Of a DNA stretch of 64,000 nt, positions 374 through 13,455 are shown in pieces. The stretch spans positions 258,747-322,746 of the forward strand of contig JAIPGM010000002.1 of the NCBI GenBank assembly GCA_021735655.1, in the 5' to 3' direction. Position 1 is the first letter of the stretch. Each line of letters begins with the position of its first letter. Made by a program: the position numbers and the translations under genes. Under the pieces are notes generated by a model that was given only the letters and a program-made list of their open reading frames with translations, had not been told where the DNA came from and made no database searches. The stretch is from Candidatus Omnitrophota bacterium. Its GTDB lineage: Bacteria > Omnitrophota > Gorgyraeia > Duberdicusellales > 4484-171.

Positions 374-1612
374 TTAGGGCATCTTACGAATAGCTTCGAC
401 CCGTTTCAATACCGGCGGATGACTATAATCCAAAAATACCTTTAATCGATGCGGGCTTAAATTAGAAAGATTGTTTACAGTGAGCTTTTTAAGCGCCGAG
501 ATAAAGGCCTCCGGATTTTGATAGGTCCTTACCGCATAGCGATCAGCTTCATATTCATGTTTTCGCGAAAGCAAATTACCGAATATTGAAAAAATAAAAC
601 TAATTGGTGTATAAAGGAAGCTAAAGAATATAAGCCCAGCGTAAACTGATATTTCATCCATTCTAAAAGCATTGAATAGCCCAGGATTTTTTATAAAAAA
701 TGAAAGCAGGTAAAACATCAGACCTTTAGTTAATGCTGAGAGTAAAAGACGTTTTATAATATGTTTCTTTTTATAGTGGCCAACTTCATGTGCTAAAACA
801 GAAACAATTTCTTCAGTAGTGTGTTTTTGAATTAAAGTGTCAAATAAAGCAATCCGACGAGATTTGCCTAAACCAGTAAAAAAAGCGTTAGACTTACTTG
901 ACCGACGCGACCCATCAATTTTAAAAATACCCTTTATCTTGAACTTTTGCGAATTAGCATAATCGCTAACCGCCTTTTTAAGCTCCCCATCTTCTAAGGG
1001 GGTAAATTTGTTAAAAAGCGGTAAAATTAACACCGGAGCAATAAAAATAAAAAAAGTACTTAAGAGAACCGTAGCCAACCAACACCAAAGCCAAGCTCCC
1101 TGATCGCTAAACTCGACAAAAAGACGTACAATTAAATAGAAAGCCGGACCGGCAATAATTACCAACAATATCCAGTTTTTAATTAGATCAGTAATAAAAG
1201 TTTTTACGGTAGTTTTATTGAATCCATACTTCTCTTCAATAACAAAGGTCTGATAAATAGAAAAAGGTATCTCAATAATTTGAAGTCCGAAAACAATAAT
1301 TCCGGCAAAAATTAAACCGCTAAACTCAATATTTGAGCTCAAATCTCGGGAGATTCGGTCAACTAAATTGAATCCTCCGCTTAGAATAAAAATGATAACA
1401 ACTGTCGTAAAGACGGTTTTTTGAATAAGACTAAAGTAAGTATTTTCTTTAAGGTATTTTTGCGAACGACTATAGTCCTCAGGATTATAATAACCTTCAA
1501 ATTCTGCAGGTAGACTAAAACCAACTGAGGAAATATTTAACATCTCTACGGTCACCCGCAAGACATACTCGCCGATTAAAATAGCTAAAATAATAACTAA
1601 ATAAGGATTCAT
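374..1612 (-). CDS. M48-family zinc metalloprotease, Ste24/CAAX-prenyl-protease-like, multi-TM
   Basis: HEVGH zinc motif plus downstream EYEAD; several predicted TM helices; length 412 aa typical for Ste24-type M48A. Confidence 0.7.
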   Translation of the reverse strand: MNPYLVIILAILIGEYVLRVTVEMLNISSVGFSLPAEFEGYYNPEDYSRSQKYLKENTYFSLIQKTVFTTVVIIFILSGGFNLVDRISRDLSSNIEFSGLIFAGIIVFGLQIIEIPFSIYQTFVIEEKYGFNKTTVKTFITDLIKNWILLVIIAGPAFYLIVRLFVEFSDQGAWLWCWLATVLLSTFFIFIAPVLILPLFNKFTPLEDGELKKAVSDYANSQKFKIKGIFKIDGSRRSSKSNAFFTGLGKSRRIALFDTLIQKHTTEEIVSVLAHEVGHYKKKHIIKRLLLSALTKGLMFYLLSFFIKNPGLFNAFRMDEISVYAGLIFFSFLYTPISFIFSIFGNLLSRKHEYEADRYAVRTYQNPEAFISALKKLTVNNLSNLSPHRLKVFLDYSHPPVLKRVEAIRKMP

Positions 1613-1650
1613 AAAACTATTTATTTTTTGAAGTTGAAACTGACAAGATT

Positions 1651-1840
1651 AAAAAAACCGACAAGGGCTTCACGGTGTGTCTACCGGCAACTCAGCCACC
1701 ATCATAGTCTAAGGCTCATACTCGCAAAGTTGGGGAGCGTTGCGTTTTAGGAGAGCTTGCGAATCATCTCGCCCAAGAACTATCTTAGGTCTGTCAGTTT
1801 TGCGCCCCTTACTTTCGTAAGGTTTGCCCTTATCGGCACC
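1651..1840 (-). ncRNA. Candidate structured small RNA (~190 nt), family unknown (6S-like or novel)
   Basis: GC-rich (~50%) island in AT-rich intergenic DNA between mscS-like and M48 genes. On the minus strand: perfect GNRA hairpin CCUUAC-GAAA-GUAAGG; hairpin CUUGGGCGA-GAUGAU-UCGCAAG; 5' CCGAUAAGGGC pairs with 3' GCCCUUGUCGG (11 bp closing stem) followed directly by a U7 tract. No ORF. Confidence 0.4.
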
Positions 1841-1843
1841 TTA

Positions 1844-1873
1844 ATTATACAATATTTTTGGTGCTAATTTCAA
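1844..1873 (-). promoter_or_regulatory. Sigma70-type promoter for the candidate sRNA (-35 TTGAAA, 18-nt spacer, -10 TATAAT)
   Basis: Minus strand reads ttgaaattagcaccaaaaatattgtataat with consensus-like boxes. Predicted TSS sits about 5-8 nt downstream, at the GGUGCCG that starts the closing stem. Confidence 0.35.
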
Positions 1874-1903
1874 CCCAATATTCAGAATATATATACAATA
1901 TCG

Positions 1904-2962
1904 TTACTTTGTCAGATGAACAGTCTGAGTAGGAAAAGCAAATTCAATCTTTTTCTTCTCAAATTCACCCTTAATGCCCAGGTTTATCTCTTGTTGAATA
2001 TCCATATATTTATTATAATCACTGCTAAGCACGTAATAGACTACCTCAAAAATAAGATTAAACTCACCATAAGAAAAGAAATGAGCTCGATCCAAAGTGG
2101 CACCCTCAACACCTTCAATTATCTCCCCAATAATCTTAGGTATTTCTTTTAACTTAGAAAGAGATGTGTCATAAGTAGTACCCAGCTGAAACATCACTCT
2201 TCGTTTCTGCATTCGCTTATAATTACGTAAGCGAGAATCCGTCAAATCAGAGTTAGAAAAAACTAGCTGTTCGCCGCCTAAACTGCGAATTCGAGTAGTT
2301 TTAATTCCAATGTTTTCTACTGTTCCCAAAAGATCGCCAACAATAACAAAATCGCCAACTTCAAAGGGACGGTCAAAAATAATTGAAAAATAACTAAATA
2401 AATCCTTTAGAACTGCTTGGGCAGCCAAAGCAATGGCTACACCACCAATACCCAACCCGGCAATAACCGTTGATATTTTAAAACCTAAGTTGTCTAAATA
2501 GAAAATAATAGCCAGGGCCCAAATAATAAACTTAGTAACCCTCAAAACACCCTCTAGACTATTCTTTAAAGTTTCACTGCGCCTAGACTTTCGCCAATAA
2601 ACATCTAAACTATAGGTAATTATACGAATCAATAAACGGACCGTAAAAAAAGTTATTAGCGCCATCACTAGAACGCCTAGGCCGCGATTAACCTGTTCAC
2701 TTAAGGTCAAGGTTTTAAGACTTAAGTAGAAGGCCGCAAGGTAAAAAATCGGAATAGCTATTTTCTCAATAATTTCAGCTAAGAAATCATCAATACTAGT
2801 AAGCGTCTTTGCAGCTAAACTTCTGAGTTTTTTTAAAATGATGAGCTCGAATATCTTTATTACAACACAAGCTAACAGGAATGCACCAATATGAACAATA
2901 TAATCCTGTAATGAGTTGCCAAGTATAATGTACTCTGAAAATTCTTGCATAGTTACCCCCAA
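1904..2962 (-). CDS. Small-conductance mechanosensitive channel (MscS family)
   Basis: N-terminal TM helices followed by the MscS beta domain signature (...GTVENIGIKTTRIRSLGGEQLVFSNS...). Confidence 0.75.
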   Translation of the reverse strand: MGVTMQEFSEYIILGNSLQDYIVHIGAFLLACVVIKIFELIILKKLRSLAAKTLTSIDDFLAEIIEKIAIPIFYLAAFYLSLKTLTLSEQVNRGLGVLVMALITFFTVRLLIRIITYSLDVYWRKSRRSETLKNSLEGVLRVTKFIIWALAIIFYLDNLGFKISTVIAGLGIGGVAIALAAQAVLKDLFSYFSIIFDRPFEVGDFVIVGDLLGTVENIGIKTTRIRSLGGEQLVFSNSDLTDSRLRNYKRMQKRRVMFQLGTTYDTSLSKLKEIPKIIGEIIEGVEGATLDRAHFFSYGEFNLIFEVVYYVLSSDYNKYMDIQQEINLGIKGEFEKKKIEFAFPTQTVHLTK

Positions 2963-2981
2963 AAAAATATCAGTTAAACTG

Positions 2982-4175
2982 TTAATTTTCCGAAATCGAA
3001 TACCGAACTTTAGATTTTTGTATTTCCAAAGTGCTAGCCAGTTCGGTTTCAGTTACAAACCCGAGTTCTTTTAAAATTTCTCCAAGCATAATTCCTCTTT
3101 TCCAATGAATTAAAAGAGCTTCATCGAGCTGATTTTGAGAAATTGCCTTTCGTTCAATTAATATCTGACCTAAAGGTTTATCATTGGTTGTCTTTCGATG
3201 ATAGATTTCCGGTGTTGCGTCTTTATTTGTTTTGGTGTCACGACGATCAACCATAAATTTGCTCTCAGGGATAGTTTTGAGGTAACGCTTTATTTCGGTA
3301 ACTTTTTCATTAAGCTGAATCATATTTTCGATACCAGAAGTGTACTCTCGATTGACTACGGCAATCGAAATTGTCATCAAAGGTGTATTTGTTAATTTAC
3401 GAGTTCGATCGCGATTAACCACAAAACCTTGGTTGCGATCTATTTCAGAGTAATGAAAAGGAATAATCGTATCGAAACTTTTAATAAAATTGTGGCATAT
3501 TTGTGCGTATTTATCCATGGTGCTGATAAAAACAAAATCATCTCCTCCAATATGACCGATAAAATCATCAGAATTTCCGAATTTTTTTACCGCGTCAATT
3601 AACAAGTGAGTTGTATGAAGAATTACTCCGTCACCTTTACGGTAGCCATAGACATCATTGAAAGATTTAAAATTATCAATATCTAAATAAGCAAATGAAA
3701 ATGGTTTTCCAGTTTTAAACTTTTCATTTAAGGCATCCTCAAATATTTTAGCACCAGGAAGACCAGTTAAGGAACTCGCATAAATACTGTGTTGGGCGCG
3801 TCTTGCAGCCATTTCAATTCGAATACGTAAATCAAGCGGGTCTGGTGGTTTTATCAAATAATCATCGACTCCTTGCTTTAGACTTAATAATTGAGCGCGT
3901 AATTGCCGCTTATTGATTAAAGTTATGACCGGAGTAAAAGCAGTGGCAAAATTTTCTTTTAAAAGCCGACACATGGCTAATTGTTCTTTACGGGCTGATT
4001 GAATATCAATGACTATGACATCAGGGGAAATTCTTTTTATTTTTTCGATATCTTGCGGTTGAGTAAATTCACGTAGGAAAACTTCGTATCCCCAACCGTC
4101 AAAACAAAAGCGCAGAACCTCTTTTAATTGACTATCCGAAGAGATAATTAAAATTTTATGTATAGTATCAATCAT
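2982..4175 (-). CDS. Response regulator: REC domain + degenerate GGDEF (GGDDF) + C-terminal MshEN/T2SSE_N-like c-di-GMP-binding domain
   Basis: N-terminal receiver (DVIVIDIQ... phospho-acceptor Asp region); central diguanylate-cyclase fold with HIGGDDFVFI; C-terminal LGQILIERKAISQNQLDEALLIHWKRGIMLGEILKELGFVTETEL resembles the GspE-N/MshEN motif. Confidence 0.65.
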   Translation of the reverse strand: MIDTIHKILIISSDSQLKEVLRFCFDGWGYEVFLREFTQPQDIEKIKRISPDVIVIDIQSARKEQLAMCRLLKENFATAFTPVITLINKRQLRAQLLSLKQGVDDYLIKPPDPLDLRIRIEMAARRAQHSIYASSLTGLPGAKIFEDALNEKFKTGKPFSFAYLDIDNFKSFNDVYGYRKGDGVILHTTHLLIDAVKKFGNSDDFIGHIGGDDFVFISTMDKYAQICHNFIKSFDTIIPFHYSEIDRNQGFVVNRDRTRKLTNTPLMTISIAVVNREYTSGIENMIQLNEKVTEIKRYLKTIPESKFMVDRRDTKTNKDATPEIYHRKTTNDKPLGQILIERKAISQNQLDEALLIHWKRGIMLGEILKELGFVTETELASTLEIQKSKVRYSISEN

Positions 4176-4183
4176 TTAAACTA

Positions 4184-7100
4184 TTATACCACTTTCTTCT
4201 GTTCCTCAATTATTTTTTGGGCTATTTCCTTTGGTACCTGGGTGTACTTTTTAAAATGCATTGAGCAACTTGCCCGGCCACTAGATAAAGACCTAAGATT
4301 GGTTACGTAACCAAACATTTCCGAAAGTGGAGCCTCAGCCGAAATTAGCTTTTGGTTACCTTTTGAATCCATACCTAAAATTTTCCCCCGACGCGCACAA
4401 AGATAACCAACAATACCACTAGTATGCTCTTCTGGAGTAAGTACTTCCAAGCTCATGCAAGGCTCAAGAAGAACCGGACTCGCTTTTAAAAAAGCGTTTT
4501 TAAAGCAAGTTCTTGCAGCAATTTTAAACGCTAACTCTGAAGAATCAACTTCATGGTATGAACCATCAACGAGCTTTACCTTAACATCGACCACCGGATA
4601 ACCGGCATAAGAACCTTTTTTCATTGCTTCAATAATACCTTTCTCAACTGCCGGTATATAGTTTTTAGGTATTGCTCCACCTTTAATGCTATCTTTAAAT
4701 TCAAAACCAGCAGCTTCTTCATTAGGAGAAAGCTCAATCGCTACGTGGCCGTATTGGCCTCTGCCTCCGCTTTGCTTAGCATGTTTATACTCTTCGCTAG
4801 TAGACTGAAGGATTGTTTCTTTATAGGCAACTTTAGGCTGACCGGCCTGCGCTGAAACCTTAAATTCTTCCTTCAAACGTTCAACGATTATTTCAAGATG
4901 TAATTCTCCCATACCAGAAAGAATTGTTTCAGAGGTTTCCTCGTCGGTATGAGCGTTAAAAGTGGGGTCTTCTTCTGCTAGTTTAGCTAAACCCTTGGCC
5001 ATCCTATCCTGATCGGAACGACTCTCCGGTTTTATGCTGATTGAAACGACTGGCTCAGAAAATTCAATTGACTCAAGTAATATTGGATTTTGAATGTCAG
5101 AGAGTGTATCGCCGGTTAAAGTGGAACTGAGACCGACAATTGCCGCAATATCACCGGCAAACACTGCGTCAACATTTTCTCGTTGGTTAGCATGCATTCG
5201 AACAATTCTCCCGATACGCTCTTTTTTATTTTTAGTTGCATTTAAAACATAAGTTCCGGCCCTTAAGCATCCCGAATAGATTCGAGCATAGATCAATTTA
5301 CCTACATGCTGGTCAGCTTGGACCTTAAAAGCAAGCGCTGAAAAAAATTCATCATCTTGAGGCTTACGTTCCAAGCTTTTTTCTTTATCATCGGGGTCAG
5401 AACCAATAACTGGCGGAATTTCAGCCGGAGAAGGTAGATAGGCAACAACTGCATCAAGCAAGTCTTGAACACCCTTATTTTTTAATGCTGACCCGCAAAA
5501 AACCGGAACAATCTTATTTGAAACTGTAGCTTTGCGCAAAGCCTCAGTCAGATCGTCTTTGCTGATTGACTCCTCTGACTGTAAGTATTTTTCCATTAAT
5601 TTACCATCATAAGAGGCTACCCGATCAACCAAACTATGGCGGTATCTTTGAGCGATTTCTTTATAGCTTTCATGAATATCTTCCGACCTAATATCTTTGC
5701 CTAAGGATTCGTCATTATAAAGATGCATTTTCATATTAATAAGATCAATTATGCCTTTAAAGTCACCTTCCTTACCGATCGGTATCTGTAAGGCAACTGG
5801 TTTAGCCCCAATAGTATTTTCGATCTCTTCTAAAACCTTAAAAAAATCAGCCCCGACCCGATCCATTTTATTTATAAAGGCTATCTTCGGTACATGATAT
5901 TTATCCGATTGGCGCCATACGGTTTCAGTTTGAGACTCTACTCCTCCCACCGCACAAAATACAGCAACTGCCCCATCTAGGACCCTTAACGATCTTTCAA
6001 CTTCAGCGGTAAAATCAACGTGGCCGGGGGTATCAATAATAGTAATTTGGCAATCTTTCCAACTACAAGTGGTTGCAGCTGAAGTTATAGTTATACCTCT
6101 TTCCTGTTCTTGTTTCATCCAATCCATCTGAGCTGCCCCGTCATGAACTTCGCCGATTTTGTGCGACCGGCCGGTATAGAAAAGAACTCTTTCAGTAAGA
6201 GTAGTTTTCCCAGCATCAATATGGGCCATAATCCCAATATTACGGATCTTGCCCAGTTCTATTTTTCTCTCCGGCAGTGGCTCCTCTACTTTTTTTACTG
6301 CTTCAGGCTTAGGCTCGGCTTGTATTTCTGGTTCTTGAGCCGATAGCTCCGGAGTCACTTCTTCACTTGCGGTTTCAGGTTGCCCTTGGGTCAAATCTTT
6401 AGTTTCACCTTCCTGCCCTTGGATTAAAGATTCGTCTTCCTTTAGCGATTCTTTATCTGAAGGTAACTCTTCAAATTCCTTAGTTTCTGAAATAGGTTCA
6501 CTTGGCTGCGCCTGAACTAACTCATTCTCAAGATTGGAAGATTCTTTTTGAGAATCACCGTCCTCAATTAAAAGAATATCTGCTAACTCATCGTCCTTAA
6601 TAACGCCGCTTCGTTTAATCTCGCGTAATTTATTAAGAATACGAATCCGCTCCTGATCAATTTTTTCGATATCTTTACCTTTTAGCTCCAACTCCTTAGA
6701 TTTAATCTCTAACTCATTTTTTAATTCTTCACTTTGTTCTTCTAAAAGAGAGTACTCTTCTTTAGATACCCATTCGCTTTGACGTTGTTTTTCTTTCATT
6801 TGAGCAACTTCAGCAGCATGTGCGACAGTTTCTTTAGATAGCTGGTGCATTCTTTGAGTCTGATCTTTTAGCTCACTTTCCAAAGAAATAATCTTATCTT
6901 TCAATTGATTGATATTGACTTCACGAATTTTGATTACTTCTTCAGCTTGATCAAGTTCTTTTTTAAACTGCACACTCCGGGAAAACTCTTTCTCTAAATC
7001 CTTTTCCTTAGTAATCAATTTAACTCTCAAAGCCTCATAGGGACCTTTTCCTTTTTTCAAAGTAAGCTGCTGACTATTAAGCCATTTTTTATTGCGGTTA

Positions 7101-7393
7101 ATTTCCTCGCCCAATTCTTTAGCCTTGAGGCTAAGCTTTTGATGCTCATCTTGCAAGCTGAGATACTCAGCCTGAGTTTTTGTTAAGGCGACAATTTCAT
7201 TTTTTAATTTTGTTAGTTCCCTTTTTGAAGATTTAAGGTTTTCTGACAAGGCAGAAATTTTTTGTTGTTGCAAGTCAGGCTTAAGGCCAAACTTTGTACC
7301 CAGAGTACCTTTTAAAACTGAATCATCTTCGTTGTTAACTAAATACAGTACTAGGGCAATCGATACTCCAATTACAACAAAAATTAAAGTCAT
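4184..7393 (-). CDS. fusA: Elongation factor G homolog with ~370-aa N-terminal extension (TM helix + coiled coil + acidic linker)
   Basis: Residues ~375-1069 are full-length EF-G ([38 protein letters not shown], domains II-V). The upstream 370 aa are in the same uninterrupted frame: [19 protein letters not shown] (TM), a long heptad-rich K/E/L coiled coil, then an E/P/Q-rich linker. No ATG/GTG/TTG lies just before the EF-G core. Confidence 0.8.
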
Positions 7394-7464
7394 ATTAAAA
7401 TTATATCATATCTTTGCTATAAACAAAGACTTGAGAGTTAAAATATGCGTGCTATAATAAGACC

Positions 7465-7911
7465 ATGTTAGAAGAAAAAATTTACCAGGATTTTATAGCT
7501 GCCCGCAAAGCCAAAGAAAAGGTGAGTTCTGACCTTCTCGGTATTATTCGCTCAGAACTCAAAAACAAGGCTATTGATTTAAAAAAAGATAAAGTTGATG
7601 ATACGGAAGGTTTAACAGGACTCAAAAAACAGCAAAAACGCCTCCTTGATACTAAAAAAAGTATTGCTCAGTCACAAAGAAACGATTTGATTGCTAACAC
7701 TAATCAAGAAATCGCCCTTTTAGAAAAATATCTGCCTAAACCGCTTGCTGATGATGAATTGATAAAAATTATCGAAATAGCTATTTCGGATGCTAATGCT
7801 TCCTCAATTAAAGATATGGGTCGAGTAATGAAAGAAGTGATCGCTAAGGTTGGCGTTCGGGCTGATTCGAAAAAAGTTAGCCAAATAGTTAAAGAGAAAC
7901 TTTCAGCTTAA
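7465..7911 (+). CDS. GatB/YqeY domain protein
   Basis: 148 aa with a YqeY-like helical repeat pattern and typical size; one of only two plus-strand genes in the window. Confidence 0.7.
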   Translation: MLEEKIYQDFIAARKAKEKVSSDLLGIIRSELKNKAIDLKKDKVDDTEGLTGLKKQQKRLLDTKKSIAQSQRNDLIANTNQEIALLEKYLPKPLADDELIKIIEIAISDANASSIKDMGRVMKEVIAKVGVRADSKKVSQIVKEKLSA

Positions 7912-10679: not shown

Positions 10680-11375
10680 TTAACCCTTTAAAAGAAGATA
10701 AAGCAAAGCGCCAAAAATAATTATACCAATAGCCAGTATGGTATATTCAAGAATCCCTGCCTTGCTTTTATTAAGTGGGATATCATCTAACACAAATTCC
10801 TCTTCAGGTTCGCTAACCGGTGTTTTTTTCGGCTCTGGCTCCGGTTCTGGTTCTGGCTCGGGAAGAATTTCCTCTTTTTCTGGTTCGGCCAAAGTTTCAG
10901 CGGGAACTGGCTCAATATTTTCGGAAGGCTTTCCTTGATTAGACTCTGGTTCCAAAGAAGCCAAGGCCTCTTCGGTTTTTTCAGGAACAATTTCAGTTAT
11001 CTCCTCAGAAACAACTGGCGTTTCTTTAATTTCTGGCTCTGGTTCTATAGCTGGTATCTCTGAAGAAATATCAGCTGCACCAGGCACATATTCCATATCC
11101 TCTCTTGGCTCAACCGGCAAAGCCGGTTCAGGAGCTAACTCTGGTTGAATCTCTGGAACTTCTTTTTCAACTGAAGGTGTTATTACTGGCTCTGGCTGAG
11201 CTTCTTCTGATTTTACCGATTCTTCGTCAATAGCCAACTTATCCATGAGTTCGCCTAAAGTACTCCGACAATCATGGCAAACACAAAGATGCTCTTCAAC
11301 ATTTTTTATTTCATCTTCATTCGCAGTGTGATTAAAATATTTAGGAATTATAATTTTAATTTCTTCGCAGTCCAT
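10680..11375 (-). CDS. Zinc-finger (HC2-type) anti-sigma-factor-like membrane protein with Pro/Glu-rich repeat linker
   Basis: N-terminal EEHLCVCHDCRSTLGELMDKL motif (zf-HC2); long PEPEPEPEPEP/EPxPE low-complexity stretch; C-terminal TM helix. Confidence 0.5.
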   Translation of the reverse strand: MDCEEIKIIIPKYFNHTANEDEIKNVEEHLCVCHDCRSTLGELMDKLAIDEESVKSEEAQPEPVITPSVEKEVPEIQPELAPEPALPVEPREDMEYVPGAADISSEIPAIEPEPEIKETPVVSEEITEIVPEKTEEALASLEPESNQGKPSENIEPVPAETLAEPEKEEILPEPEPEPEPEPKKTPVSEPEEEFVLDDIPLNKSKAGILEYTILAIGIIIFGALLYLLLKG

Positions 11376-11484: not shown

Positions 11485-13455
11485 CTAAAAGCTTACTTTA
11501 CAACCGGCAAAGAAGTTTCTTTCTGGAGAAGGATAAAGTCCTCGCGTGGTACCGGTAAGATTAGTTGCAGCGTACTCACTGTAAAGTTCGTTAAATAAAT
11601 TATTAACACCGGCAAAAAGCTCTAACTTTTTTCCGGTATAACTTAATTTTATATTAGTTGTGTTGTAACTTTTTAACTTAGGGCTGATATTATTAAGATC
11701 ATTAATTAAATAAACTTTATCTCGATAAAGATAATCAGCAAAAAATGAAAAGCGTTCAAAAAAATCATATTTTACCGAAGCTGTAAGCATAGCCTTAGGA
11801 ACGAAAGGAACTTCCTTTCCAGCGTAAACACCGCCACGGAATTTCGCATCGATAAAGCGATAGCCGAGAGTAAACTTTGTATTGTCAAATGGGGTAAGGG
11901 TTGTAGTGAGATTCGCACCTTGACGACGAATTTTACTATAATTTTCGTTAGCGAACGTCCCTGGGTTGTAGTATATTTCGTTATTAACATTCATTTGAAA
12001 ATAATCCAAAGATGTGGTTAAAAAGTCAGTTAAACGCATATTGGCCCCCAAACTTATAGTTTTAGAACGTTGTGGTTTTAAATTTGTATTAATTGCTGCA
12101 GCCGGCCAAGTAACTAAGTATTCATCGGTCTTACCGACCCTCAAACCTCGCGAAAAATTAAGATAAATATTACTTTCGTTATCGATTTTATAGTTAAGTC
12201 CAGTTTCATACAAGCCTTCTCGAAAATTCAATCCATCATCAGTGCTTGTAGAACCAAAATAATCAAAAGTAAACTTTTCTTTTTGCACCCTAGCCCCTAA
12301 ATGCCCAGCAAGTTTTTCATTAAAGCTAATTTCATCCTGTAAAAACCAAGCTAGGCTCTGTCGATCAATGTCAGTAGCCGCGCTTGAGGTATCAGCTGAT
12401 AAATCCGAACTATAAAATTCAAATCCGGCAATTAGCTCTTGTTGAATTCCTCTAGTATCAAAAGACAATAATAGTTGTGGCCGCGCTTGAAAATTAGTTA
12501 TATGTTTGTCAGTAGACATGCTATAAGAAAGTAAATCCTCCAACTCATTTCGGTTACGATAAAATAAATCAACTGAAGCAATCAGCTCAGGTGAAAACTC
12601 GTTTTTAATAGTTAAGCCTAAAGTATTATCCTCTCGTTGATAGTTATTTAAAGGAGTTGTTGAGTCACGACGTGAAGTTCCAGCTAACCGTTCAGCTTCG
12701 GTTATATCATCTGGCAATCCATAGATATATTCGTGATGAGTCAAGTCAGCACTTATCTCTAACTGTTCGGTAGGCCTAGAGTTTAGTTCTATTGAGCTGT
12801 ATTTTGAGCGGTAATGACTATTTTGACGATAACCACTTGTTGAATGGTACTCAGAAAATGTGCGAAACGATAAAAGGTCTTCTCCACCTGAGGCTGAAAT
12901 AGACTCTTTGGTCGAGCGGTAACTTCCGGCTTCAAAGTTAACTTCAACTGAAAGATCCTTAGCTTGAGGATCTTTTGAAATAATATTAACTATTCCTCCG
13001 GCAGCACCCTCTCCATACAGGACAACTCCGCCACCCCGGATTACTTCTATTCGTTCAACATTTTTTAAGGGCAACTCAGTCCAGTTAACTCCGCTCATAT
13101 CGATTTCATTAATTTTTCGACCATTCACTAAAACCAGCATGTTTGATGCAGCATTATCACCAAAACCCATCATATCAACAGTTGTCTTAACGTTAGTTCC
13201 GTAATAATCGCTGACGTGTAACGACGGAACATTTCTTAAGAAATCAATTACTGTGCTTGATCCGCTAGCCTTGATATGTTTCTCGGTATATACTTTGGTC
13301 GCATAAGGAGTTTCAGAAATTGTTGTTTCTTCTACTCCGGCATAAGGAGTTACTACTATTTGCTCTAAATCTATTTGTCCTTGCGCCAACAAAGGACTTA
13401 ATGATCCAAATTGAATAGTCAAAAATAATATTAAAAATACAAAACACCTTTTCAT
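11485..13455 (-). CDS. TonB-dependent outer-membrane receptor (BtuB-like, cobalamin-riboswitch controlled)
   Basis: Signal peptide MKRCFVFLILFLT...LLAQG; TonB-box/plug region; C-terminal beta-barrel ending in aromatic residue (…GCKVSF). True start set at the ATG 8 nt downstream of the AAGGAGGGGG RBS. The upstream 22 codons of the track ORF overlap a terminator hairpin. Confidence 0.8.
   Translation of the reverse strand: MKRCFVFLILFLTIQFGSLSPLLAQGQIDLEQIVVTPYAGVEETTISETPYATKVYTEKHIKASGSSTVIDFLRNVPSLHVSDYYGTNVKTTVDMMGFGDNAASNMLVLVNGRKINEIDMSGVNWTELPLKNVERIEVIRGGGVVLYGEGAAGGIVNIISKDPQAKDLSVEVNFEAGSYRSTKESISASGGEDLLSFRTFSEYHSTSGYRQNSHYRSKYSSIELNSRPTEQLEISADLTHHEYIYGLPDDITEAERLAGTSRRDSTTPLNNYQREDNTLGLTIKNEFSPELIASVDLFYRNRNELEDLLSYSMSTDKHITNFQARPQLLLSFDTRGIQQELIAGFEFYSSDLSADTSSAATDIDRQSLAWFLQDEISFNEKLAGHLGARVQKEKFTFDYFGSTSTDDGLNFREGLYETGLNYKIDNESNIYLNFSRGLRVGKTDEYLVTWPAAAINTNLKPQRSKTISLGANMRLTDFLTTSLDYFQMNVNNEIYYNPGTFANENYSKIRRQGANLTTTLTPFDNTKFTLGYRFIDAKFRGGVYAGKEVPFVPKAMLTASVKYDFFERFSFFADYLYRDKVYLINDLNNISPKLKSYNTTNIKLSYTGKKLELFAGVNNLFNELYSEYAATNLTGTTRGLYPSPERNFFAGCKVSF

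Follow-up and report, generated by a model that had tools for sequence, protein, structure and literature searches.

A 64,000-nucleotide stretch of DNA from a Candidatus Omnitrophota bacterium (assembly GCA_021735655.1, contig JAIPGM010000002.1, positions 258,747 to 322,746), hereafter called the window, contains a gene for an elongation factor G (EF-G) with an N-terminal extension that comprises a predicted transmembrane (TM) anchor, a coiled-coil stalk and an acidic linker. Judging by its recurrence and by the selection acting on it, this long gene is genuine and its design is conserved in the phylum Omnitrophota. Its product is probably a catalytically normal translocase that is tethered at the membrane and serves membrane-proximal ribosomes, while a free paralogue serves the rest. 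The structural part of this proposal is considerably more secure than the proposal as a whole.

The gene occupies positions 4184–7393 of the minus strand as a single open reading frame (ORF) with an ATG start and 1069 codons plus stop. It is complete according to the ORF listing, the coverage by homologues and the ratio of nonsynonymous to synonymous substitution rates (dN/dS). The alternative frames have 30 and 51 stops across codons 1–375, in DNA of approximately 36% GC, so that the open frame in this region is not due to chance. No in-frame ATG, GTG or TTG lies between V346 and M389. The V346 codon is a GTG that lacks a Shine–Dalgarno (SD)-like motif, and M389 sits within the G1 motif, which bears out the original prediction that no canonical start codon or ribosome binding site immediately precedes the EF-G core. 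In public annotation the gene is shorter. The NCBI model of the window gene (MCF7907706.1) starts at M199 and has 871 amino acids, and the models of two relatives have 797 amino acids on the complete chromosome CP070797 (locus L007) and 700 amino acids on WJKZ01000192 (locus L006), compared to approximately 1050–1110 amino acids for the conserved TM-initiated frames of the long genes. These shortened annotations open at arbitrary internal methionine codons. An exact database look-up of the 1069-residue product returned no match because the public gene calls start at M199. Start calling that is guided by family length systematically shortens the long EF-G genes, and their architecture is thus invisible in public annotation.

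The same architecture was found in many related genomes, where the original prediction had proposed to look for it. A search with the whole protein retrieved more than 100 clusters of 1000–1080 amino acids with 51–77% identity, many of them covering 99–100% of the query, and the named long-form clusters all derive from Candidatus Omnitrophica/Omnitrophota. A genome scan, which considered one genome per species and used clade-specific peptide patterns such as QMDWMKQE, yielded 79 loci, 60 of which carry a long EF-G gene. From these clusters and loci, the long architecture appears to be essentially confined to Omnitrophota. In 27 of 61 long genes, there is no possible start codon at all in codons −40 to −6 before the core, and no start position near the core is conserved among the 61. 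Of 23 short EF-G genes, by comparison, 18 start with an ATG that precedes G1 by exactly 16 codons. Down to approximately 22% identity, the long proteins still share the hydrophobic N-terminus and the motifs of the stalk. In the seven closest gene pairs with unsaturated dS, dN/dS is 0.08–0.17 for the TM segment and stalk, 0.13–0.42 for the linker and 0.03–0.07 for the core, and hence no part of the gene reaches 0.45. The values for the linker suggest that this part is relaxed but still constrained. Taken together, the recurrence of the architecture, the lack of a conserved internal start and the low dN/dS argue that the extension is translated and under purifying selection.

Residues 376–1067 match positions 3–690 of the 691 positions in TIGR00484, the EF-G equivalog model, with 1051.7 bits against a cut-off of 659.4, and the five Pfam domains of EF-G follow one another in the usual order (PF00009, PF22042/PF03144, PF14492, PF03764 and PF00679). 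An AlphaFold2 model of the full protein, for which a 58-sequence alignment was used as input, has a mean predicted local distance difference test (pLDDT) score of 77. In this model, residues 376–1069 adopt a confident EF-G fold, with most blocks of 10 residues above 80. The G domain, including G′, spans residues 382–655 (5429–6250, on the minus strand like all features of this gene; PF00009, 7.6e-69) and has intact G1–G5 motifs. Domain II follows at residues 684–766 (5096–5344; PF22042 and PF03144) and is modeled as a confident beta-barrel, and domain III at residues 778–851 (4841–5062; PF14492, 1.6e-31). Domain IV, with the tip loops SGGRGQYGH and GSYHEVDSS, spans residues 853–972 (4478–4837; PF03764, 1.1e-47) and domain V, which contains K1015, residues 974–1060 (4214–4474; PF00679, 2.4e-26). 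The nearest solved structures of the core are those of EF-G from Thermus thermophilus (867 bits) and E. coli (851 bits).

The catalytic and translocation-specific residues that were examined are retained as well. The G1 P-loop, the switch I sequence RGITI, the G3 motif DTPGH with its catalytic histidine and the G4 motif NKMD are all found in the window protein. G1–G4 are retained in 57–60 of 60 long cores and form invariant columns in the 58-sequence alignment. The motif of domain IV loop 2 is kept in 59 of 60 long cores. For loop 1, a strict pattern matches 41 of the 60 long cores and 5 of the 23 short ones. G876, G877, G879, Q880, Y881, H883, H947, D950 and S951 are invariant in the 58 long proteins. 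Two long homologues, P0002 and P0035, reach 1052 and 1077 bits with TIGR00484. Other translational GTPase models do not describe the window protein. It scores 513.1 and 506.1 bits against cut-offs of 890 and 1000 for the EF-G2 models NF009377 and NF058620, 412.5 against 775 for the Tet ribosomal protection model NF012153 and 182.2 against 533.9 for LepA/EF4 (TIGR01393), and it falls far under the cut-offs of the BipA and RF3 models. All the sequence tests applied thus assign the C-terminal part to the EF-G family and not to EF-G2, the Tet protection proteins or LepA. The earlier suggestion of an EF-G2-like or LepA-like stress factor finds no support in the core.

Upstream of this core, the extension is composed of four helices and a disordered region. 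The TM anchor corresponds to residues 2–20 (7334–7390) and is predicted to be oriented N-out, with the remainder of the protein in the cytoplasm. Residues 1–19 have a mean Kyte-Doolittle hydropathy of 2.79 over this 19-mer, and AlphaFold2 places a helix at residues 2–20. A flexible juxtamembrane segment follows (residues 21–40; 7274–7333), which is rich in lysine and arginine in most homologues and has pLDDT below 50 at residues 21–39. The stalk consists of three helices. Helix 1 (residues 41–113; 7055–7273) ends at an R..W(V/L) motif, which includes W104, and a KGKGP break. Helix 2 (residues 119–205; 6779–7039) carries the motif KEKEL..EFSKNV with K129, F137 and V141. Helix 3 (residues 211–261; 6611–6763) starts after a SEWVSK break with S206 and W208, and holds L217 and E248. 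The acidic linker, rich in glutamate, proline and glutamine, spans residues 262–375 (6269–6610) and varies in length and sequence across the family. In the window protein, its residues 266–375 contain 31% aspartate plus glutamate and have a net charge of −25. In the AlphaFold2 model of the full protein, residues 2–20, 41–113, 119–205 and 211–261 are helical and residues 262–369 are disordered (pLDDT 26–35). Folded alone, the N-terminal module gives the same helices, with helix 1 at 41–115, a pLDDT of 85 that rises up to 98 in helix 2, and a predicted template modeling (pTM) score of 0.33. The individual helices are thus predicted with confidence, but their mutual arrangement is not.

The region covering residues 26–270 is rich in lysine, glutamate and leucine, and hydrophobic residues at heptad positions a and d are in excess over shuffled sequences (z = 5.05), with a heptad score of 0.77–0.81 over residues 41–80. 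Hydropathy, heptad analysis, the AlphaFold2 model and the TIGR00484 match thus agree with the original prediction of a complete EF-G behind a TM helix, a coiled coil and an acidic linker in one frame of 1069 codons. Within the stalk, W104 and V141 are invariant among 58 sequences, while K129, F137, S206, W208, L217 and E248 are conserved in at least 90%, and the helix breaks coincide with the conserved KGKGP and SEWVSK motifs. By this pattern of family-specific conserved motifs, the stalk does not appear to be a generic coiled coil. The stalk module was compared to Pfam, to a sequence profile search of PDB and, by Foldseek, to PDB structures, and neither a domain nor a fold match was obtained. 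Weak generic coiled-coil matches (E > 1e-3) were to GCN4, tropomyosin, Smc and Lpp.

The N-terminal hydrophobic segment is found in 153 of 169 long proteins, the exceptions being truncated gene calls. In the family as a whole, this segment is preceded by a median of one residue and, on average, 0.07 lysine plus arginine, and 5.8 lysine plus arginine occur in the 25 residues after it. According to the positive-inside rule, such charge flanks predict an N-out/C-in signal anchor with the EF-G moiety in the cytoplasm. They also argue against a cleavable signal peptide of the Sec type, which has a positive n-region, because the basic residues come after the hydrophobic segment.

The origin of the extension can be traced to some degree. 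A profile of residues 1–263 was compared to 1.84 billion cluster representatives, and matched 570 proteins with E ≤ 1e-3, 241 of them with E ≤ 1e-10. The top matches are N-terminal fragments of long EF-Gs. Below these, at least 60 representatives (P0213–P0272) belong to a family of stand-alone Omnitrophota proteins of 205–236 amino acids (approximately 225). These proteins have the same TM helix, lysine/arginine patch, coiled coil and motifs, namely a conserved tryptophan (..W..), F.(K/R)E(Y/F)S and (S/T)xWV(S/A)K, and they end 20–40 residues after WVSK. They are encoded by complete genes inside contigs, belong to no Pfam family and are annotated as hypothetical, e.g., HOW35727.1 (P0233) and MCX7661742.1. 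Profile comparison aligns the stand-alone proteins with the N-termini of long EF-Gs (residues 1 to approximately 230) over positions ~2–230 with E values of ~1e-17 to 1e-22. With the stand-alone proteins as tblastn queries, E values down to 6e-24 are reached at long EF-G loci and 8e-8 at the window. The window protein has the N-terminal TM segment, the signature motifs and the end-to-end similarity that define the module, with a weak basic patch. Sequence comparison thus suggests that the long gene is best explained as a fusion in which this module was joined to a duplicated EF-G, with a new acidic linker in between. The genes of the stand-alone module have a conserved neighborhood of Hpt, TPR and response-regulator genes (loci L082–L088). 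They are not adjacent to EF-G, and their neighborhoods give no support of the Rosetta-stone type.

Other proteins with a TM segment and a coiled coil are weakly related to the module (P0211, P0212, P0271), and some of these are fused to the c-di-GMP-binding domains MshEN and PilZ. Weakly related TM/coiled-coil ORFs also lie 1–2 kb downstream of the long EF-G gene in loci L035 (9903–10760) and L045 (6440–6961). All of these weakly related proteins lack the tryptophan motifs, so the similarity may partly be that of generic coiled coils.

Besides the long form, an EF-G of ordinary length is encoded in several of these genomes. Eleven assemblies carry both a long EF-G and one of approximately 695 amino acids. 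Five of them have both forms in one locus (L007, which is a complete 1.5-Mb chromosome, L013, L057, L059 and L077), with directly adjacent genes in L013 and L077. In the other six, which all belong to the window's own subclade, the two forms lie on separate contigs. The coexistence in these assemblies makes the long form a paralogue. Together with the conserved and selected extension, for which membrane insertion is predicted, this upholds the proposal that the gene encodes a membrane-tethered EF-G paralogue rather than an EF-G with a mis-called start. When the cores are placed in a neighbor-joining tree, the short copies fall into one clade, which also includes sequences of Auribacterota, and the long copies form several deeper and longer branches. 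This tree is midpoint-rooted and is affected by rate differences between the two types. The short copies have a mean identity of 78.6%, against 71.5% for the long ones, and are the more similar in 55 of 55 genome pairs. Within one genome, the long core is 66–82% identical to the short EF-G. The short copies score 1079–1092 bits with TIGR00484, so that both types fall within 1052–1092 bits, and nearly all copies, long and short, keep the GTPase motifs and the loop 2 motif of domain IV. The sole discriminating position is K1015, which is a lysine in the long and a glutamine in the short copies, and there are no type-specific indels. A neofunctionalised core was rejected on these grounds. In terms of sequence, the specialisation of the long form thus lies in the added module and not in the catalytic core.

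In the assembly CAZAYU01, the long gene (L005, ~7000–7900) and the short gene (L070, ~5100–6000) share a segment of approximately 810 nt in the G domain with 100% DNA identity, and identity falls abruptly to ~60–65% on both sides of this segment. The pattern points to gene conversion in the recent past or, possibly, to an artefact of the assembly. If the conversion is real, the G domains of the long and short forms would be interchangeable.

It had also been noted that the long gene is not in an rpsL-rpsG-fusA-tuf context. Indeed, the window holds no rpsL, rpsG, tuf or rpsJ, but this is not distinctive, as the 27 normal-length relatives are alike in this respect. None of the four genes was detected near the long copies or in the 27 short-copy neighborhoods examined, with tblastn probes consisting of E. 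coli RpsL, RpsG, Tuf and RpsJ sequences and with the Pfam-annotated contexts of four short copies. As neither type resides in a str operon, the str context was dropped as a discriminator between them.

A gene for an NYN-domain protein of ~180 amino acids lies directly upstream of the short EF-G gene in seven loci (family f18) and in the contexts of P0106 and P0118; examples include L033, L080, L081 and L089. The metagenome-assembled genome JAIWAR01, which is labeled "Methanosarcinales archaeon," contains bacterial long and short EF-G genes (L011 and L069) in the gene order that is typical of Omnitrophota. Probably these represent Omnitrophota contamination of the bin, a case of some note since V. 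archaeovorus is reported to be an epibiont of Methanosaeta.

Compared to known systems, the canonical EF-G (FusA; T. thermophilus 1EFG/1DAR; E. coli) has the same five domains, GTPase motifs and domain IV tip loops as residues 376–1069. The window protein differs in its additional 375 residues of TM anchor, stalk and acidic linker and in the lack of a str operon context, and its relatives carry a normal-length copy as well. The EF-G of ~695 amino acids in Omnitrophota and Auribacterota is likewise located outside a str operon and passes TIGR00484, but it lacks the extension and evolves more slowly. The stand-alone proteins of ~225 amino acids share the anchor, the coiled coil and the motifs with the long form, but not the acidic linker or the EF-G, and are found in signaling and TPR neighborhoods. 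EF-G2, the spirochaete-type EF-G1/EF-G2 pair and Tet(M)/Tet(O) are also additional EF-G family members beside the housekeeping factor. These paralogues have a divergent core and no membrane anchor, whereas the long form combines a canonical core with an N-terminal module. LepA/EF4 is reported to be peripherally membrane-associated in E. coli, and a membrane-stored pool has been proposed for it. It is thus a translational GTPase linked to the cytoplasmic membrane, like the long EF-G, but it lacks a TM segment and its set of domains differs. RNase Y and FtsY possess an N-terminal membrane anchor or acidic A domain and a coiled-coil or disordered spacer, followed by a cytoplasmic enzyme. They share the overall design, in which a soluble enzyme handling RNA or ribosomes is confined to the membrane by an anchor and a spacer. 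However, RNase Y is a nuclease and FtsY the receptor of the signal recognition particle (SRP), and no Pfam, PDB or Foldseek match ties the module to either.

Few proteins are as conserved or as well studied as EF-G, which is treated as a freely diffusing cytosolic factor. To our knowledge, there is no precedent for an integral-membrane translational GTPase. Full-text literature searches, which included the main Omnitrophota papers, did not yield a description of a membrane-anchored EF-G, and the words "membrane," "transmembrane" and "coiled" do not occur in a survey of translational GTPases (Atkinson, 2015).

How might the long form work? The TM anchor would insert with its N-terminus outside, leaving the stalk, the linker and EF-G at the cytoplasmic face. 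There, the EF-G moiety would act as a normal GTP-dependent translocase and possibly, with the ribosome recycling factor, in recycling. Its diffusion would be confined to a shell near the membrane, so it would preferentially serve membrane-proximal ribosomes, e.g., those making membrane and secreted proteins. The free EF-G paralogue would serve the remaining ribosomes. By a geometric estimate, the 211 helical residues measure ~13 nm when folded back and ~31 nm when extended, and the linker of ~110 residues adds ~8 nm on average and up to ~40 nm. The total reach of the tether would then be ~20–70 nm, against a cell radius of ~100 nm. More tentatively, it is conceivable that Omnitrophota run a spatially divided elongation, in which an integral-membrane EF-G physically links some of the ribosomes to the cytoplasmic membrane via the stalk module.

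Several points weigh against a membrane-tethered translocase that is specialised for nearby ribosomes. The juxtamembrane residues 21–40 of the window protein are only weakly basic, with three lysines versus four aspartates or glutamates, and the case for the topology consequently comes mainly from the family. Insertion into the membrane, its topology, the oligomeric state and the translocase activity are all predicted. Omnitrophota cells measure ~0.2 µm (PMC10066038), and in cells of this size a leash of tens of nanometers may restrict access very little, which would weaken spatial specialisation. The neighborhood of the gene has no link to Sec, SRP or YidC, and the context is not conserved across the family. 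Paralogue status is shown for the 11 related assemblies, and in the 64 kb of the window the long gene is the one EF-G gene. Finally, the gene order S12-S7-EF-G-EF-Tu-S10 has been reported in several complete Omnitrophota chromosomes (preprint 10.64898/2026.06.07.730766). The clade-specific peptide patterns of the genome scan would miss a more divergent str-operon EF-G, and a third EF-G lineage of this kind may exist in the phylum.

Alternatively, the long form could be a reserve of EF-G that is stored at the membrane, inactive or remote from ribosomes, with proteolysis of the linker freeing soluble EF-G, e.g., upon host attachment or under stress. The linker would suit this role, being long, disordered and poorly conserved and thus an accessible protease substrate, and storage at the membrane has been proposed for LepA/EF4. 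In the window's subclade, moreover, the genes downstream, in a probable operon, encode a response regulator with a GGDEF-like domain, an MscS-like channel and an M48 protease. This order is, however, kept only in loci L001–L012. Also, no conserved cleavage motif was seen in the linker alignment, the conserved motifs are located in the stalk rather than in the linker, and the genomes holding both forms already encode a free EF-G. Storage followed by release is therefore considered unlikely.

In another scenario, the module is part of a membrane assembly, and the fused EF-G captures ribosomes via their factor-binding site, with GTP hydrolysis as the release switch. That the module exists as an independent conserved family with invariant motifs implies a function or partner of its own. 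The related TM/coiled-coil ORFs adjoining the long genes in L035 and L045, and the profile matches that join a similar region to MshEN or PilZ, are in line with such an assembly. A mere docking handle, however, would be expected to relax domain IV, while every catalytic and translocation residue examined is kept and the dN/dS of the core is 0.03–0.07. The apparent gene conversion with the soluble copy argues for functional equivalence too. Only a small probability is given to ribosome docking.

An exported product, in which a cleavable signal peptide at the N-terminus would lead to secretion or surface display of the coiled coil and EF-G as a moonlighting adhesin or effector, is highly improbable. 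The hydrophobic segment does lie at the extreme N-terminus, and an epibiotic or predatory lifestyle is assumed for many Omnitrophota (PMC10066038). Yet there is no positive n-region, the basic cluster after the segment is the opposite of a Sec signal, the hydrophobic stretch of ~19–20 residues has the length of a TM helix, and a conserved GTPase with a tRNA-mimicking domain IV would be useless outside the cell. The last explanation, an artefact in which the upstream 375 codons are untranslated owing to a non-canonical start near the core, or in which an assembly error removed a stop codon, is effectively refuted at the family level: although NCBI starts the window gene at M199 and shortens those of two relatives as well, and no SD-like motif precedes M1, such motifs are rare in this genome (13 of 51 window genes), the truncated annotations begin at arbitrary methionines, the architecture recurs in 60 independently assembled loci and over 100 clusters, its N-terminus and stalk motifs remain conserved and its extension constrained (dN/dS 0.08–0.17), and 27 of 61 long genes have no start near the core, where no position is conserved.

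A canonical EF-G that has its own TM anchor, stalk and leash throughout a phylum would surprise the translation field. If membrane-tethered translocation is real, the long form would be the first known case of a translational GTPase that is itself a membrane protein, and a bacterial, factor-based counterpart of membrane-bound translation. In a cell of ~0.2 µm, a membrane EF-G could arrange a large part of protein synthesis along the envelope. It makes testable whether the access of elongation factors differs between membrane-bound and cytosolic ribosomes, and whether any such difference is exploited. In addition, the long form brings to light an uncharacterised family of membrane coiled-coil proteins in Omnitrophota, from which the module derives, and hints at how translation is organised in ultra-small, possibly host-dependent cells with few ribosomes.

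Regarding expression, a putative extended −10 element, TGATATAAT, is located at 7400–7408 of the minus strand, with its end 6 nt ahead of the ATG at 7393. It is a consensus match only, and it occurs at the same spacing in the closest relative (L001). Its position would fit a leaderless or near-leaderless mRNA beginning at M1. The long gene is divergent to a gene with a YqeY domain (7465–7911, plus strand); the Pfam context agrees on this point with what had been noted before. The yqeY gene has a promoter-like sequence of its own at 7431–7458 (plus strand), with TTGAGA, a 16-nt spacer and TATAAT plus an upstream TG, which amounts to 11 of 12 matches and ends 6 nt before the ATG. From these elements, both divergent genes, yqeY and the long EF-G gene, look leaderless.

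Downstream of the long gene, after a gap of 8 nt, the genes for the response-regulator/GGDEF-like protein, the MscS-like channel and the M48 membrane metalloprotease occupy positions 374–4175 of the minus strand, and probably form one operon with it. The active-site motif of the GGDEF-like protein is GGDDF instead of GG(D/E)EF. The order of these genes is conserved within the window's subclade but not beyond. A neighbor conserved across the whole family was sought and none was found, so that guilt by association assigns no function.

Elsewhere in the window, a 231-aa ORF at 10680–11375 (minus strand) has a cysteine/histidine-rich N-terminus resembling an anti-sigma-factor zinc finger, a long spacer rich in glutamate and proline and, at the C-terminus, a TM helix. 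As in the long EF-G, the linker of this second membrane protein in the window is acidic and rich in proline. Gene co-orientation is very strong, as all 49 of the 49 ORFs of at least 150 amino acids between positions 12000 and 64000 lie on the minus strand. Over the first 12 kb, the cumulative GC skew falls steadily.

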